Virus record (IMG/VR): IMGVR_UViG_3300047200_000500
Coordinates: 64,001 to 128,000 of that record
Source of the DNA: a virus
Strand: one strand, 5' to 3'
Length of the DNA: 64,000 nucleotides
The notes under the pieces are model-generated. The model had not been told where the DNA came from, made no database searches, and saw nothing but the letters and a program-made list of their open reading frames with translations. Positions 31,799-39,898 of the stretch are shown here, piece by piece. The translations under genes and the position numbers were made by a program. Position 1 is the first letter of the stretch. Each line of letters opens with the position of its first letter.

Positions 31799-32254
31799 AT
31801 GAAGTTGTCACTGATAAATGAGTCTAATAGAGAAGATAGAGAAATACTATCAAGACAAGCTGAATTTGAAACAGTTCTTTTATATGAGCCAGAATTTGAA
31901 TCAATGGAAAATTATGAAATTTTAGATTATTGCACGAAACAATTTACTACTAATACTCCTCCTGGTATAACACCAATAAATGCCAAAGTAATATGTGCTG
32001 ATACTAAAAATGTGGATGATGATAGATTATTTAAAGCTGTTTTTGTAACTTCAATTGAAGATTTCATAAGAAATTCGATAGAGTATGACAATGATGTGTA
32101 TGATATATTAGATGGTATTAAGGTTGCCACCCATGATAAATCAATTATGGCGGCAGCCAATAGATTTATGAGAGACAAATCAAATAATTTTAAAGTAGCA
32201 AAAATTGGTGGTGGAAATGAAATATCAGATATTGATGTTACTCAACAATTTTAG
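31799..32254 (+). CDS. Hypothetical protein with capsid-targeting-like N-terminus (MKLSLINE|S)
   Basis: 151 aa, late-type motif 12 nt upstream. Confidence 0.6.
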   Translation: MKLSLINESNREDREILSRQAEFETVLLYEPEFESMENYEILDYCTKQFTTNTPPGITPINAKVICADTKNVDDDRLFKAVFVTSIEDFIRNSIEYDNDVYDILDGIKVATHDKSIMAAANRFMRDKSNNFKVAKIGGGNEISDIDVTQQF

Positions 32255-32255
32255 T

Positions 32256-32414
32256 ATGAAACTTTCATCAATTAATGATAGGGCACCAAAAGATAAGAAG
32301 GTTGTAGATCTTAGGAGTAAACCAGAAGAAGATAAAGTAATAGATGCCAGAACACCATCAAAGAAAAATGATGGTTTAGGTAAAGGATGGAGAACGTTGC
32401 GTCAAGATGCGTAA
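32256..32414 (+). CDS. Small protein (MKLSSIND...)
   Basis: ATG 1 nt after the upstream stop; N-terminus resembles that of 31799. Confidence 0.5.
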   Translation: MKLSSINDRAPKDKKVVDLRSKPEEDKVIDARTPSKKNDGLGKGWRTLRQDA

Positions 32415-33043
32415 TCTGTCTGATATTTGTATTGTTTAAAATAATGCTCAACAAATAATTTTTTGTCGTCGTTTTCTTCTAAATCTATAAGTATCTTATT
32501 ATTAATGAAGAAATTAAATTTATGTATGCCTAAATAATAGTTTTCTTCAAATCTTATATTGTTATTGGTCAATTTCTTTTTTAAATCGTTATGATCACGA
32601 GTTCCAAATTTCAAGTTCATCTCCTTTTTGTCCTTAGCTGTTAATACTTTAATTCTATAATCATCATCTAGCCATTTATTTTTTATCTTATTTGATATGT
32701 CTTCCCTATAATTTTTGGACTTCCATAATTTTTTAACTCTGTTACTATTATCTGATTTATTTTTGGAATCTTGGTAAAATTTCCTCAATGATTTACTTAT
32801 TTTATCTGCATTTTTAGCATTGTTGATAGTTGCTATCATACTCATTTTGGATTTTACAACGCTACTAGCTAATTTCTCCAGTGATCTTTCTTTAGATTCA
32901 TGTTTAAATTTTTTAGATTGGGTGGTTTTTTTGATTTTGCAATTTCTGCATATGAATTTTTTGGGGTCGTTTCTTGATAACCATCTGTTTAGAAATTCAT
33001 ATTCTGTTTGGCATTCTTTACATGTGGCTTTAATTTTGTTCAT
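32402..33043 (-). CDS. Degenerate free-standing endonuclease-like protein (Zn finger, NUMOD-like helical repeats, eroded PD-(D/E)XK/DUF559-like end)
   Basis: CKEC...CRNC; 'KISKSLR..', 'REDISNKIK.KW' repeats; 'FNFFINNKILIDLE' lacks the usual D...E..G..H residues. Confidence 0.5.
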   Translation of the reverse strand: MNKIKATCKECQTEYEFLNRWLSRNDPKKFICRNCKIKKTTQSKKFKHESKERSLEKLASSVVKSKMSMIATINNAKNADKISKSLRKFYQDSKNKSDNSNRVKKLWKSKNYREDISNKIKNKWLDDDYRIKVLTAKDKKEMNLKFGTRDHNDLKKKLTNNNIRFEENYYLGIHKFNFFINNKILIDLEENDDKKLFVEHYFKQYKYQTDYAS

Positions 33044-33181
33044 ATAGTGTTCGAAATTATTTATTTACAGTGAAATACATTCATAATTATACTAAATTAC
33101 TTGTTGATTAACAAAATTACAATAACGGGTGAATTAATACATAATTCATTCGATTCCGTCACTAAATGACAAGGAAACCAG

Positions 33182-33892
33182 ATGGACCTCTCCAAAATCG
33201 AAGCAATCCTCAAAAAGATGAACATCTCTGAGGAAGCTATCAAGGAATTCACTACCACTGTTAGTGAGCATTTTGTTTCTAAGGAAAAGGCGCTCAAAGA
33301 AGAGTTTACCCAACGTTTAAATAAAGCTAAACAAGTGTGTGTTGAAGAAGTTGAAGCACACAAATCAAACCTTTCTCGTGGTGTCCAGCGCTTCTTAGAA
33401 GCTAAGGTCACTACAATCGAAAAAGCTGCTTCCAAAAAGCATGCTATTGAGGAGTCTGAAGCTACCACCAAACTCAAGCATCTCAAAGCATTGCTTGAGG
33501 GAATAAATGTGGATAGCGCTCAAACCAATCAGGCTCTCCAGGCTGTCAAGGAAGAGAAGGCTGCTGTTGAGAAACAGCTTGTTGAATCTCGCGAAGCACT
33601 GCAACGCGAGAAGGCTAAGGCCGGTAAGCTCTCGGAAATAGCTGAAAAGTCCATGGCACGGCAGAAGGACCTTGAAGGTAAGCTGCAGTTAGTGGAAAAG
33701 AAGCTGGAAGAGAGTAAGGTTGCTCCAGTCCAGGAGAAGACCTTGGCAGAAGAGAAGCAATCTGCGGCTAAGCCTCAGACGACAGTAGTGGCGGAGAGTA
33801 CCAAGCAGAATGCTGCTAAGCCTACCGCTAAGCCTGCTCAGAACGAGCCATCGAATGAAATCGATGACATCGCCCAGTCCCTGGAATCCTGA
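33182..33892 (+). CDS. gp22: Major prohead scaffolding protein, T4 gp22-like
   Basis: Coiled-coil, E/K/A-rich, immediately upstream of the capsid gene; AAGGA SD. Confidence 0.75.
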   Translation: MDLSKIEAILKKMNISEEAIKEFTTTVSEHFVSKEKALKEEFTQRLNKAKQVCVEEVEAHKSNLSRGVQRFLEAKVTTIEKAASKKHAIEESEATTKLKHLKALLEGINVDSAQTNQALQAVKEEKAAVEKQLVESREALQREKAKAGKLSEIAEKSMARQKDLEGKLQLVEKKLEESKVAPVQEKTLAEEKQSAAKPQTTVVAESTKQNAAKPTAKPAQNEPSNEIDDIAQSLES

Positions 33893-33927
33893 ACCCTCTA
33901 TCAACCCTCCCACCAACGGAGATCCAA

Positions 33928-35422
33928 GTGAACAAGCGTCAAGAAGTCCTCTTAACTGAGGCTAAGAAGAACGAACAGGTCCACAAGTGGGCCAAAGTTC
34001 TCAACAAAATGCCCGAAGTCAAGTCCCGCAGCAAAATGGGACTCATGGCTTCGATCATGGAAAACCAGTACAACCACATGAAGGGCGGCGGCGGAAGCCG
34101 TATCCTTTTTGAGGATGCTACCACCACCAACAACATCGCGGACTTCACCCGCTTTGCCCTCCCCCTCCTGCGCAAGAGCTACCCCAAGCTCATCGCTGAC
34201 GGCCTCGTGGGCGTGCAGCCCATGTCGCAGCCCGCTTCGCTGATCTTCTACGTCCGCTATCGGTATGGCATCAGCAAGGGCCAGACTGTTGCTGGTACGC
34301 AGATCATGCGTCAGAACACCTCGCAGGCTTACGCTCGTCAGAATGGCTGGGCGCTTGATCCTTACTACAGCTCGCAGACTGTTAAGGACGAGAACCTCAC
34401 CATCGCTGGTGGCGTGATCAGCGGTCAACTGGCCCAGAAGCCTGTTCTGGCTGGTACCGTGGTGGTCAACGTCTACGCAGCTGACACCAACTCGTGCGAC
34501 ACCCCCACCCCGCTGCTCCAGGTTAGCTTCGACAGCAAGGGCGCACCCGACAACGTTCTTATTGGCAACGTGACTGGTCTGACGATCGACACCTCGACAA
34601 GTGGTGCTACGTCCTTCAACCACAACACTGGCACTGTGAACATCACCGTTTCAAGCGGTACGTTCCCAGTTGGTGCCTTTGCGACTGTCGATTACGAGTT
34701 CGACCTTGAGAACAACCCCTTCCAGCCGGAAGTGACTCTCTCGATCGACAGCGACTCGGTTTCGGCCATCACCCGCAAGCTGAAGACCTCGTGGAGCCTT
34801 GAGGCTGCTCAGGATCTCCGTGCACAACATGGACGCTGAGGCCACCCTGACCGACCTGATGGGTGATGAGATCGTCGCTGAGATTGATCGTGAGATCATC
34901 AACGACCTGATCATCGCTTCCAGCATCCGCGCCACCCACAACTTTGCCACCGCAGCCGGTGCTTCGGTCAACTTCATTGACCGTAACATCGCCCTGTTGT
35001 ACAAGACCCTGGAAGTGGCGAACGTCATCCATCGTACCACACTCCGTGGTCCGGCCAACTGGATGGTGACTTCGGCTGATATCTCAAGCAAGTTTGAGCA
35101 GCTGAACGACTTCCGTGGTAGCGACGTGCTGGCCACCGATGGAATCGACATTGGCATCACCAATGCTGGAACCATTCAGGGCAAGCTGAAGCTCTACAAG
35201 GATCCTCTCTTCCCCAACTGCAAGATCCTGATGGGCTTCAAGGGTAACAGCGCACTGGATGCGGGTTACTTCTACGCCCCCTATATCCCGCTGCTCAGCA
35301 CCCCGACTGTGCTTGATCCAAACAGCTATACCCCTAGTAAAGGCGTGATGACCAGATACGGGAAAAAGCTGATAGAAGATGGTGGGTTGTTCTATGGAAC
35401 TATTAACGTCAGCAACCTGTAA
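33928..35422 (+). CDS. gp23: Major capsid protein (T4 gp23 family), split by a frameshift at about 34819
   Basis: 'GVQPMSQPASLIFYVRYRY' and 'RKLKTSWSLEAAQDL' in frame 1; 'DAEATL...EIVAEIDREII', 'RGPANWMVTS', 'YFYAPYIPL' and 'GVMTRYG' in frame 2. Confidence 0.95.
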
Positions 35423-35447
35423 TTCGGATCAGAAGTAGTCGAAAGAC

Positions 35448-35487
35448 GCATCGAACCCCAGGTGAAAGCCTGGGGTTCGATGTTTTT
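35448..35487 (+). terminator. Strong intrinsic terminator after the capsid gene
   Basis: CATCGAACCCCAGGT-gaaa-GCCTGGGGTTCGATG followed by TTTTT. Confidence 0.9.
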
Positions 35488-35596
35488 GTACATAGAAATG
35501 CCCATAAGAAGCCTGTAAAAATAATATGATGTAAACAGTAAATAATTGTGTTAAATTGCAAAATATATAAAATAAGAGCACTTCTATGGAGAACAC

Positions 35597-37321
35597 ATGA
35601 AGTATTTTTTTGAAGAAGTATCCAAATTGTATGAGCAAGGAAAATCGCAAAAACAGATATCTGATGAATTAGGTTGTGGTCTTAATACTGTTCGTAGAAG
35701 AATGAAAGAATTAAAATTGGGTGGTAAATCAAAAGGGATAAGAAATTATCAGATTAATGAATCTGTTTTTGATAATATTAATACAGAAGAAAAAGCTTAT
35801 TGGCTTGGATTTTTATTGGCTGATGGTTGTATTGCCAAGTCTGCAAAAACAAGAAGAGCAATAAAAGTATCAATACAAATAAGAGATAAAGAACATTTAC
35901 TAAGATTAGCTAAATTTTTTAATTTTAATGGTAAGTATATTTTCGATAAGAGAAATAATCATGAAAGAATTGGATTTGTTTTTAATTCTGTTAGGTTATG
36001 CAATAAATTAATAGAATATGGATGGCTTGAGTTCAAAGAAAATGGCGATACTAAAATATTAAATATTAACGAAAATTTATTTAGTCATTTGTTCCGTGGA
36101 TATTTTGATGGTGATGGATGTATTTCAAATTGGATTAATAAAAAGAAAACATGGTATATCCATATAGTATCAAATAATCGTAAGCCACTTGAATATTTTA
36201 ATTCAAAAGTTCCAGTAAGTTCAGTAGTTAAAGATAGGATTAATAAAAAATCTGGCAATAAAACATATACGATAAAATGGAGTGGGCTAAACAATGTTAG
36301 ATCAATGATTGGTTATATTTATGATAATAGTAATATTTATTTAAAGAGAAAATTTATAAGATGTTCCAATATTGATAATGATTTATTTGTGTTTAGATCA
36401 ATTCATTCGTTTAGTTTTAATGGAATTAAAAGAACCAATGATATAGATAAAATAGTTTGTGAAAGATTAATAGAATCATTTTCTAATATTTTAATTGATT
36501 ATGGTTGGTCGAATCCACAATTTGATTATGAATATGATATCAATGAATTAAAAAAATTTGATATTAATAAATGTATATGTGAAAATTCATTAATAACTGT
36601 TAATGGTAAAACTCCTGGAAATGATACAATTTTACATTTCCAATCTGATATTTGGAAAATAAGTCAAAATTCAAAACCATCAATATATGAATTGTCAAAT
36701 CATAAAAATATTGTAATTAAGGCTATTAATCAATTTTTTAAACAAGACAATAGTTCCTTATCATCAACTAGACTTATTAGAGAATTACAATTTGCTGGAT
36801 TTACAAAAGCGTCAATCTTGTCTGTTCCAGTAATCATGGCAGCAATTAAAAAATTCAATTTGTCTGGTAGTTGGTTTGATCCGTGTGCTGGATGGGGAAA
36901 TAGATTATTAGCTGCTCATATTCTGAAGATTGATTACAATTGTACTGATCCAGGAATTTGTTATGAAGGATTAAAAGAATTATCTTCTAATATAAAATCA
37001 ACTGCAACTGTTCAAAACAAAAAATGGCAAGATGCTGAATGGATTAATTGTGGATTTGTATTAACATCACCTCCTTTTTGGAATAAAGAAAATTATTTAG
37101 ATAATGTTGATTACGGAACATATGATAAATGGTGTGGTGAATTTTTATTTCCATTAATAGAGAAATCTAAACAATATTCACAAAATATTGTTTTTCATGT
37201 TGATAAAAGAATGATTAGCAGTATATCTGAAAAGTATAATACTGAGATTGTTCCACTGACTTCCTCAAATAGACATAAAATGCCAACTGAATATTTTATA
37301 AAAATTAATGAATGTATTTAA
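35597..37321 (+). CDS. HTH + LAGLIDADG homing endonuclease fused to an amino-DNA-methyltransferase-like domain
   Basis: 'AYWLGFLLADGCI' and 'HLFRGYFDGDGCI'; C-terminal 'FDPCAGWGNRL' (SAM-binding) and 'TSPPFWNKENY' (catalytic motif). Confidence 0.8.
   Translation: MKYFFEEVSKLYEQGKSQKQISDELGCGLNTVRRRMKELKLGGKSKGIRNYQINESVFDNINTEEKAYWLGFLLADGCIAKSAKTRRAIKVSIQIRDKEHLLRLAKFFNFNGKYIFDKRNNHERIGFVFNSVRLCNKLIEYGWLEFKENGDTKILNINENLFSHLFRGYFDGDGCISNWINKKKTWYIHIVSNNRKPLEYFNSKVPVSSVVKDRINKKSGNKTYTIKWSGLNNVRSMIGYIYDNSNIYLKRKFIRCSNIDNDLFVFRSIHSFSFNGIKRTNDIDKIVCERLIESFSNILIDYGWSNPQFDYEYDINELKKFDINKCICENSLITVNGKTPGNDTILHFQSDIWKISQNSKPSIYELSNHKNIVIKAINQFFKQDNSSLSSTRLIRELQFAGFTKASILSVPVIMAAIKKFNLSGSWFDPCAGWGNRLLAAHILKIDYNCTDPGICYEGLKELSSNIKSTATVQNKKWQDAEWINCGFVLTSPPFWNKENYLDNVDYGTYDKWCGEFLFPLIEKSKQYSQNIVFHVDKRMISSISEKYNTEIVPLTSSNRHKMPTEYFIKINECI
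37313..37321 (+). promoter_or_regulatory. Representative second motif TGTATTTAA
   Basis: Identical at 18928 and 41149; variants at 2209, 14092, 39014, 57315 and 33073-33079 (minus strand). Confidence 0.45.
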
Positions 37322-37334
37322 TTTTAGAGCATCA

Positions 37335-37424
37335 GCCGCAGGTCGGCATAGCTACGATCCCAAATGTGGAAAGTAGCAACGGGAAATGAATCCTAGTCGC
37401 CTGCGGCGTCTCAACGAGGACGCC
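37335..37424 (+). ncRNA. Candidate structured cis-regulatory RNA (riboswitch-like)
   Basis: GC-rich island with GCCGCAGG/CCTGCGGC, CGGC/GTCG, GCTAC/GTAGC and GGGA/TCCT pairings, plus a competing GGCGTC/GACGCC hairpin over a GAGGA SD. Confidence 0.55.
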
Positions 37425-38657
37425 ATGCCAGCTTCAACAAGTACAAATGATAAACGGTCTAATTTTAATAGACCATCAGAAGGACCAATCATTGTTGATA
37501 ATGATGATATAATTATCAAACCTCTCACGCCTGGACGGCGAACTGTTATAATTTCTAAAGATGGAACTTGTGACATAGTTTCAGATCCAACCATCAAAGA
37601 ATTAACTGAAACTATAAAATTATTGGCATCAAAATTTAGTGATTTATATAAGAAAGATCTTAATGGAAGAATGGATGAATCAGCCATAGCGGCGTCTGAA
37701 GCATTTCAAAAGCAAATTAATGATTGGGAAATTGTTAAAAAAGAACTTAATGTGAATGATAAACAGAAAAAATTTCCACTTTCTAATGCTTATGCAAAAG
37801 AGATGATATGGCATCAAACCAATGGTTTTAATAGGAATATTAGAGTTTTTTCTTTAAAATATCGTCCAAATGGTGACATCATTAAAGATGACATTATTAA
37901 AGATGGCTACATGATATTAACACCATTTACATATAAAAAGAATAATACTAAAAAATTTTTATTTAAAAAAGTTGATGGAGAATGGAAAATGGATATCAAT
38001 AAAAAATTGCAAGTTCTTTGGTATAAAAATGAACTTATAGCAATAATTTCTCAAGAAACAATCGTTACCAGTGGTGGGGCTATTTGGAATTCTAAATATG
38101 ATAGCATTTTTGATCTATCATTTTATAAGGCTAATTTTATTAAATTTCAAGATGGATCAATGAAGGAAAATGGCGTTAATGGTATTACTAATGAAGTATT
38201 ATTATCCATATTAATAAATCGGTTTGATGATATGGATCGCGATGACGATAAAAAAATCTTAGAATTATTACAAAGTGCTAGGTTGTGGATGTATAAGCGT
38301 ATTTTGGATAAACACATTAGCGAATACAATTCAGATAACACTACAAATTTTGAACCAATAAGGCAAGGTTGCCCATGTAAAACTATACCAGAATATGAAG
38401 AATATGAGAAAAAACATGGCGAATGTCCGTGTAAATATGTCAGGAAATTAAGTGTTGGTAGTAAATTTAAAAAAGATGATGAAAAGTGTATATGGGAAAT
38501 TGTTGATTATGGTATTGCATATGATGGGTACACACCAACATATAAAGTAATTAACGAACATGGAATTAGTGGTGAAGAATATGCCAAAATTGTTGATGAC
38601 GTGATGCTCGGTAAATTTAATAGTGATAAAATATACAGGAGGTTAAGGTTGATATGA
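37425..38657 (+). CDS. Mosaic protein containing a Tad1-like hairpin domain
   Basis: GAGGA SD before the in-frame ATG at 37425. Internal 'IKFQDGSMKENGVNGITNEVLLSILINRF...LQSARLWMYKRILDK'. Confidence 0.6.
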   Translation: MPASTSTNDKRSNFNRPSEGPIIVDNDDIIIKPLTPGRRTVIISKDGTCDIVSDPTIKELTETIKLLASKFSDLYKKDLNGRMDESAIAASEAFQKQINDWEIVKKELNVNDKQKKFPLSNAYAKEMIWHQTNGFNRNIRVFSLKYRPNGDIIKDDIIKDGYMILTPFTYKKNNTKKFLFKKVDGEWKMDINKKLQVLWYKNELIAIISQETIVTSGGAIWNSKYDSIFDLSFYKANFIKFQDGSMKENGVNGITNEVLLSILINRFDDMDRDDDKKILELLQSARLWMYKRILDKHISEYNSDNTTNFEPIRQGCPCKTIPEYEEYEKKHGECPCKYVRKLSVGSKFKKDDEKCIWEIVDYGIAYDGYTPTYKVINEHGISGEEYAKIVDDVMLGKFNSDKIYRRLRLI

Positions 38658-38974
38658 TTTTCTTCATTGATTTTGATGGTACTGTCTGCCCAGATGGTGA
38701 TCCGCAGCCAGAATGCCGCGAGGTATTAAAAAAGTTAAAAGAAGATAATCATACCATAGTAATGTATTCGTGTAGGTCTAATCCTAGTTGTGTTTTTGAC
38801 CATGAACAAGCCACTAAAGAGATGATTGAATATTTGAAGAAACATGATATCCCGTTTGATGGAATAGAACCTAACAAGCCATTTTTCAATTTTATTATAG
38901 ATGATCGGGCATTAGGCATACCATTAACCAAGGCTGGGGATGTAGATTGGGCGAAGATTAAAACATTAATTTAA
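38654..38974 (+). CDS. Minimal capless HAD-superfamily phosphatase
   Basis: 'IDFDGTV', 'YSCR' and 'KP....IIDDRA'. Confidence 0.85.
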   Translation: MIFFIDFDGTVCPDGDPQPECREVLKKLKEDNHTIVMYSCRSNPSCVFDHEQATKEMIEYLKKHDIPFDGIEPNKPFFNFIIDDRALGIPLTKAGDVDWAKIKTLI

Positions 38975-38981
38975 ATATACG

Positions 38982-39014
38982 GCCCCAACAGAAATGTTGG
39001 GGCTTATTGTTTTT
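38982..39014 (+). terminator. Intrinsic terminator
   Basis: GCCCCAACA-gaaa-TGTTGGGGC, then TTATTGTTTTT. Confidence 0.8.
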
Positions 39015-39025
39015 GTATATAAGAC

Positions 39026-39898
39026 ATGGACTTGATTTTAGATGATAGACCACAACATGATTTTAATCGTTGGTATCACGACATATTGATAAAATCAGGA
39101 TTGTTTACTGTAAAATATGGGCGGATGTCAGAACATGACAGAATGCTTGAATTAGATAAAGTAGTGTATAAAAAAGGCAGACGACACCGGCATGGACAGA
39201 TATCATTTGCTAGGGTAGATGGTAAATTAGTGGTTTTCGATACCCAATTTGGTGATGGTTTTTCAGCAGATTATTTAAAGAATGGATTATTAAACAAAAT
39301 ACCAACTGCAGCTTACATTAAGTATAAACAAAATCCAGAATTACAAAAATTATTAAATTGTCCTCTTGTAGTATGGTCAATGTTCCCAGCTGGATGGGAG
39401 TTGGTTAATAAATTCATTTATAATTCTCATTATTCAAAATACAATATAATGGCGTCTGGCATGCATAGTTTAAAGGTAATGCAAAGAGTTGATTGGTTTG
39501 AACATGCTAAAACAATAGGTATTGATACTAAAATTGCAATACCAGGTACACAATATCTTGAATTGTTGAAGAAATCTAGATTTGGAATAATTTTATCAAT
39601 AAGAGATGAGAAAAACACCAGAGAATATGAATTCATATCAAATTTTATGCCGTTAGCATTAAATTATAAACCAGAATTTGAATTTGATTTTTATCCTGGT
39701 GAACATTATTTGTATATTAAAAATATTAGTGACTTATCTAGAATATTAACTGAAGACACATATAAATACAGTGCTAAATCTAAATACATATGGGAAAATT
39801 ATTTTAGGCCAGACATGGCATCTAAAATATTATTAAATAAGATAAAGCCTCATAATGGGGTATTGAATAGTTACAAGAGTTTGATGAGTAAAACTTAA
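39026..39898 (+). CDS. Putative GT-B glycosyltransferase
   Basis: C-terminal 'YLELLKKSRFGI.L....KNTREYE....PL.....FYPGEHYL' pattern. Confidence 0.6.
   Translation: MDLILDDRPQHDFNRWYHDILIKSGLFTVKYGRMSEHDRMLELDKVVYKKGRRHRHGQISFARVDGKLVVFDTQFGDGFSADYLKNGLLNKIPTAAYIKYKQNPELQKLLNCPLVVWSMFPAGWELVNKFIYNSHYSKYNIMASGMHSLKVMQRVDWFEHAKTIGIDTKIAIPGTQYLELLKKSRFGIILSIRDEKNTREYEFISNFMPLALNYKPEFEFDFYPGEHYLYIKNISDLSRILTEDTYKYSAKSKYIWENYFRPDMASKILLNKIKPHNGVLNSYKSLMSKT

Follow-up and report, generated by a model that had tools for sequence, protein, structure and literature searches.

A conserved structured RNA leader at the ribosome-binding site of a Tad1-like gene in an uncultured T4-type phage

The window analysed here is a 64,000-nucleotide stretch of DNA: bases 64001-128000 of an IMG/VR virus record (IMGVR_UViG_3300047200_000500) that is 169.6 kb long, 32% GC and ~46% complete according to CheckV, and that belongs to an uncultured T4-type phage. 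Directly upstream of a gene on the + strand that encodes a 410-aa protein with a Tad1-like core (gene X, 37425-38657) lies a compact, GC-rich element. We argue – with a probability that we place at about 0.6 – that this element is a real and strongly conserved structured leader on the + strand, that it represents a new sequence family, and that its architecture serves to control access to the ribosome-binding site (RBS) of gene X. The element is conserved at the nucleotide level in three phages and its pairing is maintained on the + strand; it folds as a three-way junction followed by a hairpin at the Shine-Dalgarno (SD) sequence; gene X starts at the ATG immediately behind that hairpin; and in the nearest-neighbour model the junction and the hairpin compete for the same bases. 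The original prediction had pictured a riboswitch-like RNA gating the RBS of gene X, and that picture is borne out in part: conservation and strand-specific pairing identify a genuine structured element attached to the SD and AUG of this gene.

As had been described, the element forms a GC-rich island in AT-rich DNA, with GC content peaking at 56% per 80 nt vs 32% for the genome. Every helix named in the original prediction, together with the motif TGTATTTAA (37313-21), was recovered where it had been placed, and ViennaRNA, applied to 37322-37440 (+ strand), folds the same three-way junction and SD hairpin at a minimum free energy of -40.9 kcal/mol. At the 5' edge of the conserved block is the leader GTATTTAA-NN-TTAGAG-Y-ATCAG (37314-37334, + strand, as are all parts that follow), which is kept in three of three genomes and carries both the stop codon of the upstream endonuclease open reading frame (ORF; stop at 37319-21) and the 5' strand of a short helix, P0 (GCAU, 37329-32). 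The next segment (37335-37347), invariant in the three sequences, holds the 5' strands of helices P1 and P1b: P1 pairs GCCGCAGG (37335-42) with CCTGCGGC (37400-07), while P1b pairs CGGC (37344-47) with GTCG (37396-99), one of its pairs being G:U. Hairpin P2 (37351-37377) has two invariant stems, GCUAC/GUAGC (GCTAC 37351-55 with GTAGC 37373-77) and UCC(C)/GGA, separated by a 2x2 purine internal loop and capped by an apical loop. Hairpin P3 (37381-37394, GGGA-AAUGAA-UCCU) pairs GGGA 37381-84 with TCCT 37391-94, and its loop contains a non-conserved ATG (37386). The 3' strands of P1b (GUCG) and P1 (CCUGCGGC) occupy 37396-37407, the last three nucleotides of which (GGC, 37405-07) are common to P1 and the SD hairpin. 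The latter, GGCGUC(U)-loop-(G)GACGCC (37405-37424), has an invariant stem (GGCGTC 37405-10 with GACGCC 37419-24) and a variable loop; the SD GAGGA lies at 37416-20 and the start codon at 37425.

The junction (P1/P1b, P2 and P3) spans ~65 nt and its strands are 3, 3 and 1 nt long. RNAalifold retains the junction and the SD hairpin and adds P0, in which GCAU 37329-32 pairs with AUGC 37425-28, start codon included. The claim that the second hairpin covers the SD holds for bases G18-A20 of the SD (37416-20), which are paired; it fails for G37416 and A37417, which lie in the loop. Between the unpaired segments there is no conserved complementarity of at least 5 bp: the longest options are 4 bp and AU-rich, and a leader-loop pseudoknot was rejected on that ground. 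Relative to shuffled sequences the fold of the window copy has a z-score of -2.99 on the + strand (1 of 200 shuffles as good) vs -1.40 on the - strand; for the copy in the more distant relative described below (L005) the values are -3.12 and -2.6. These z-scores are modest, and it is conservation that provides the decisive evidence that the element exceeds chance.

Protein and DNA searches found the element in two further phage contigs only, L002 (IMGVR 3300036886_000323) and L005 (IMGVR 3300014205_000180, the same contig as Ga0172380_10000144). Further copies were sought in IMG/VR, JGI metagenomes, GTDB genomes and, by DNA and by protein, GenBank phages, and the searches returned the same two contigs plus chance matches in GC-rich DNA; a pattern scan of 185,579 species genomes gave no match to the element, nor did GenBank phages. 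There is one copy per genome in all three phages, which rules out a multi-copy or mobile mini-element. Compared with L002, 116 of 117 positions of the element are identical, against 74-85% of third codon positions in the major capsid gene gp23; compared with L005, the element shows 12 substitutions and one gap (~104/117 identical), against 65-66% identity at gp23 third positions. Under the neutral rate given by these third positions, conservation of this degree has P ~1e-7 and ~1e-8. The aligned block, from GTATTTAA (37314) to ATGCC (37429), has sharp edges and is the best-conserved block of the locus: on its 5' side the three sequences are unrelated, and on its 3' side identity to L005 falls to ~50%. 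Unlike the leader RNA, the regions around the terminators that follow gp23 do not align across the three genomes. Because the element is conserved far above gp23 third positions, the block is under purifying selection at the nucleotide level, of a strength comparable to that on gp23 first and second codon positions.

The substitutions themselves are informative about structure and strand. Thirteen are found among the three sequences: nine affect unpaired positions, three are compatible one-sided changes, and one breaks a pair. The unpaired changes affect P2, in its apical loop and on both sides of its internal loop, as well as J2/3, the loops of P3 and of the SD hairpin, the leader, and the first codon after Met. 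The internal loop of P2, GA/AA in the window, is AA/GA in L005 – the same loop turned round – while the apical loop shows an A-to-G change and the SD loop carries one substitution plus a one-base deletion. The compatible changes convert C:G to U:G in P0, G:U to G:C in P1b, and G:C to G:U in P1. Those in P1b and P1 belong to L005, as does the pair-breaking change, which affects the terminal, junction-proximal pair of P1b. When the same substitutions are placed at random, one pair or fewer is broken in ~4% of trials (P ~0.04). Exchanges between G:C and G:U would be A-C mismatches on the other strand: the compatible changes thus keep pairing on the + strand only, which argues that the RNA acts on that strand.

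Translation beginning at ATG 37386 and running through the structure had been named beforehand as an outcome that would speak against a gating RNA, and it is not supported. This ATG, in the P3 loop, is ATA in L005 owing to a G-to-A change in the loop, and the protein alignment is invariant only from the Met-Pro at 37425, which is kept in four homologues. The loss of ATG 37386 in L005, together with the alignment of homologues from Met 37425, shows that translation starts at 37425, 4 nt downstream of GAGGA. A coding sequence or N-terminal extension from ATG 37386 is therefore ruled out, a conclusion to which the stop codons in every frame of the element also contribute.

GGC 37405-07 can pair either with GCC 37335-37, in the outer part of P1, or with GCC 37422-24, in the outer part of the SD hairpin; in each of the three sequences these two conformers are isoenergetic (-43.0 vs -42.9 kcal/mol). 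Intact, the SD hairpin (7 bp) is worth -10.6 kcal/mol; without its three outer pairs it is worth -1.5 kcal/mol. In ensemble calculations the opening of a 26-nt ribosome footprint costs 8-10 kcal/mol when the outer GCC of P1 is free, vs 15-18 kcal/mol when it is blocked and 13.5-15 kcal/mol on RNA without the junction. The C-to-U change of L005 not only weakens P1 but allows the hairpin to extend over the AUG, and the start codon can pair either with the leader GCAU or, in L005, within this extended hairpin. The layout originally proposed, an aptamer followed by an expression platform, is energetically coherent in the nearest-neighbour model.

The proposed mechanism is as follows. Gene X would be transcribed together with a 117-nt 5' leader that begins at 37314, reaches the start codon and gates translation in cis. 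GAGGA, the SD, would be locked in the GC-rich hairpin 37405-24 along with the nucleotides that separate it from the AUG, with the AUG (37425-27) able to pair with the leader GCAU. As long as P1 is not fully closed, the 7-bp hairpin would keep the site shut; full closure of P1 (8 bp) would take three G:C pairs from the hairpin, leaving a 4-bp stem that a ribosome could melt. The folded junction would thus be an anti-sequestor (the ON state), and any aid to the closure of P1 – ligand, protein, or Mg2+-dependent folding of the junction – would be expected to raise translation. The equilibrium between the conformers would then control translation, and a trans-acting factor at the junction would set that equilibrium.

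Searches against known families and signals were negative. Rfam 15 gave no match at the gathering threshold over the whole window, and none at E up to 10 over 37305-37440 (136 nt) or at the element within 32000-39000 (7 kb); the L005 copy, searched in the same way, drew a trivial hairpin match only (weev_FSE, 15.6 bits vs a threshold of 40), and ARAGORN called neither tRNA nor tmRNA genes anywhere in the window. A known RNA family is ruled out by these results, which agree with the first reading of the sequence, where no riboswitch, tRNA or ribozyme had been recognised. No GC hairpin followed by a U run, the mark of an intrinsic terminator or attenuator, occurs at the element in the window or L002; the L005 hairpin was flagged as terminator-like solely on account of a weak CCTAATCTTT tail within the start of the coding region. 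The motif TGTATTTAA is conserved with the element and is neither enriched in the genome nor recognisable as a promoter. GTATTTAA occurs five times in the genome vs 6.5 expected, and near-matches to the leader 22-mer lie in unrelated, AT-rich and apparently coding DNA. With no enrichment of GTATTTAA and no conserved sigma-70 match, a repeated promoter motif is ruled out. So is a T4 late promoter within the hairpin, the loop being 6-8 nt long and the nearest TATAAATA lying at 39761.

The gene that follows the element had been described as carrying a Tad1-like domain, and a profile of four full-length homologues does match Tad1 (PDB 8KBB, E = 3.3e-8 over ~65 residues). The Tad1-like segment is common to ~260 representative proteins; the longer architecture is found in only four clusters. 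Gene X evolves fast: its product is 78-79% identical to that of L002 and 48% identical to that of L005, the latter between phages whose gp23 C-terminal halves are ~97% identical at the protein level. Two further features of the protein were observed. At its N-terminus (37425-37510) the window gene lacks a segment of ~70 aa (LLPYKEINV...SDIYVSNI...) that P0002, P0003 and P0004 carry directly after Met-Pro, and it has lost an N-terminal module. At 38360-38450 (residues ~328-354) there is a CPC-x15-CPC motif, kept in four homologues, with a weak likeness, under the cut-off, to FeThRed_B (Pfam, ferredoxin-thioredoxin reductase catalytic chain; E = 0.0065); this region may be a metal- or cluster-binding C-terminal module.

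Analysis of the surrounding genes shows an order of prohead protease, scaffold and gp23 (Pfam Gp23, 1e-26 and 2e-45), a strong intrinsic terminator 3' of gp23 (35448-83), a 574-aa ORF (35597-37321, + strand), the leader element, and gene X. The 574-aa ORF contains a helix-turn-helix (HTH) and a LAGLIDADG domain (Pfam LAGLIDADG_3, 8e-9; phrog_4645 endonuclease, 7e-49), with methyltransferase-type motifs in its C-terminal part; it adjoins the 5' edge of the element exactly, and its stop codon falls inside GTATTTAA. The window, L002 and L005 share the order gp23, terminator, at least one endonuclease-type gene, element, gene X. The inserts themselves differ: in L002 (1286-2565) there is an HNH/EndoVII-like ORF plus an HTH ORF, and in L005 (40-2106) a 688-aa ORF containing an HNH domain. 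The gap between the gp23 terminator and the element is an insertion hotspot that abuts constrained sequence. On the 3' side of gene X the genes of L005 are also unlike those of the others. Since the flanks differ among genomes while the element stays fused to gene X, the element travels with gene X.

Two observations concern the head genes of the window. Its gp23 lacks 5 nt (TCAAG, between GGATC and TCCGT, at ~34810-34840) that are present in both relatives; this splits the gene into frames 33928-34839 and 34799-35422, where the relatives have a single open frame (519 and 508 aa). The split is either an assembly error or the mark of a defective variant. A 213-aa ORF on the minus strand (32402-33043) stands alone among the plus-strand head genes; its N-terminal end contains CxxC pairs, and it could be a further mobile insert of the endonuclease type.

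Several points weigh against a leader that gates the RBS of gene X. Only three sequences of the element are available, two of them nearly identical; none of the pairs shows a two-sided compensatory change, and with n=3 covariation statistics have no power. The P value obtained from the placement of substitutions is modest. The overlap of P1 with the SD hairpin amounts to just 3 nt, and SD bases G18-A20 are paired in both conformers. The leader 37314-34 has no convincing pairing partner and is not repeated in the genome, and no conserved sigma-70-type promoter match was found at the element in the window, L002 or L005. Moreover, variation in the loops and in one junction-proximal pair suits a ligand pocket no better than it suits a structural element or one bound by protein.

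The last of these points bears directly on what might act on the junction. In a true riboswitch the junction would be a small-molecule aptamer, and binding would stabilise P1 and turn translation of the Tad1-like gene on. The three-way junction is conserved, GC-rich and of aptamer size, P1 overlaps the expression platform, and between isoenergetic conformers a binding energy of a few kcal/mol would be decisive. Structured RNAs and riboswitches are enriched in GC-rich intergenic islands of AT-rich genomes (PMC6429828, PMC8723152), and the element bears this signature; with no Rfam match it would be a new class. We nevertheless regard a riboswitch as unlikely. The ligand, which might be a nucleotide-derived signal, is purely hypothetical. 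In riboswitches it is as a rule the ligand pocket and the tertiary contacts that vary least, whereas here seven of the nine unpaired substitutions fall in the P2 internal loop, P2 apical loop, J2/3, P3 loop and SD loop, one junction-closing pair is lost, and no pseudoknot or loop-loop partner exceeds four AU pairs. Known riboswitch classes are also rarely so narrow in distribution as an element confined to three phage contigs and absent from the species genomes scanned. A phage-only class that senses a small molecule of the infection state – at the extreme a host immune signalling nucleotide – and has the Tad1-like, sponge-type protein translated only in the presence of that signal is highly improbable; any tie to nucleotide immune signals is a long shot, and pure speculation. 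The drift of loops around retained helices is what would be expected of a translational operator bound by a phage or host protein, possibly the product of gene X, that represses or activates translation from the junction or the SD hairpin, and the flipped GA/AA internal loop suggests that shape, not sequence, is read. The SD and AUG lie inside the conserved structure, and protein-mediated translational control is usual in T4-type phages: T4 RegA, gp32 and gp43 bind operators and control translation. However, this protein is as hypothetical as the ligand, the leader bears no known resemblance to T4 operators, and no RegA-family gene was found in the genome fragments (46% and 60% complete), an uninformative result given that the control genomes of the search gave no match either; a protein operator is a doubtful proposition as well. 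Over all readings, a small molecule, a protein and no factor at all (a constitutive damping or stabilising leader) each have rather poor odds, and other explanations taken together fall somewhat short of an even chance.

Two further explanations were considered. Conservation could arise at the level of DNA, from a promoter or operator, from a recognition or landing site of homing endonucleases, or from homogenisation by endonuclease-driven gene conversion, with the RNA fold being incidental. That three different endonuclease-type genes lie between gp23 and the element in the three genomes fits such an origin, as do the exact junction between insert and element in the window, with a stop codon inside GTATTTAA, and the leader 37314-34, which has no RNA-level explanation. 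Yet the substitutions preserve RNA pairing via G:U, which is meaningless in duplex DNA; the 3' edge of conservation is the start codon, with no decay with distance from the insertion site; inserts of different endonuclease types are unlikely to share one site; and there is no sigma-70-type promoter, nor is the motif repeated in the genome. Given that endonucleases tend to target constrained sequence, such an account is a consequence of constraint more than a rival to it, and we consider a DNA-level cause improbable. It is quite improbable, too, that the RNA has another job – as a self-cleaving or processing element, a stabiliser of the 5' end, or an independent small or decoy RNA whose place ahead of gene X is incidental. 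The fold is compact, GC-rich and stable, it stands at the probable 5' end of a message, and decoy and processing RNAs do occur in phages. But no ribozyme, small RNA or tRNA-like model matches it even at E = 10, a hammerhead core is at odds with junction strands of 3, 3 and 1 nt, and in the window and L002 there is no terminator between the element and gene X; the conserved block, moreover, extends into the SD and AUG, as an element coupled to translation would.

Structured leaders that hide an RBS are a well-known kind of regulator; this element belongs to no described family of them. In the literature collection searched, no paper connects an anti-defence gene with a riboswitch or structured leader. 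Binding of a ligand or protein by the junction, if it occurs, would show that phages regulate counter-defence genes post-transcriptionally, and if the idea of a riboswitch for an immune signal were true, counter-defence would be inducible at the RNA level. If the element is merely a constitutive damping leader, it would extend the known set of phage RNA motifs only modestly. In either case it is small (~100 nt), synthesisable and suited to direct testing.

Several known systems resemble the element in part. Like the orphan motifs of the Breaker lab (GC-IGR/DIMPL; PMC6429828, PMC8723152), it is a structured, GC-rich island between the genes of an AT-rich genome and precedes a single gene family; unlike them, it is absent from Rfam 15 and confined to three phage contigs, too few for covariation. 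With the operators of T4 RegA, gp32 and gp43 it shares its position in cis at the initiation region of a phage mRNA, and a structure that is kept while loops vary; compared with RegA sites, however, it is far larger and more GC-rich. The RBS hairpins of T4 e, soc, 49 and I-TevI, which serve temporal control of translation, also belong to a T4-type phage and also set over the SD and start codon a stable hairpin, one that should silence translation on longer transcripts. In T4 a late promoter inside the structure gives transcripts without the 5' arm. In the element, by contrast, the arms are 6-8 nt apart, so that no promoter fits and no TATAAATA is present there, and a conserved three-way junction that competes with the hairpin is added. 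The remaining comparison is with the add adenine riboswitch of Vibrio vulnificus (RF00167). The element does not match RF00167 at E up to 10, has neither the long conserved purine junction nor complementary L2/L3 kissing loops, and overlaps its platform by 3 nt only; membership of the purine/add family is excluded by the Rfam result and the absent loop-loop complementarity. In layout, nonetheless, add is the closest known system, and it is of the translational ON type: in both, a P1-P2-P3 junction lies directly 5' of the SD and AUG, the helix that sequesters the RBS draws on the 3' strand of P1, and closure of P1 frees the site in add as it is predicted to do here.

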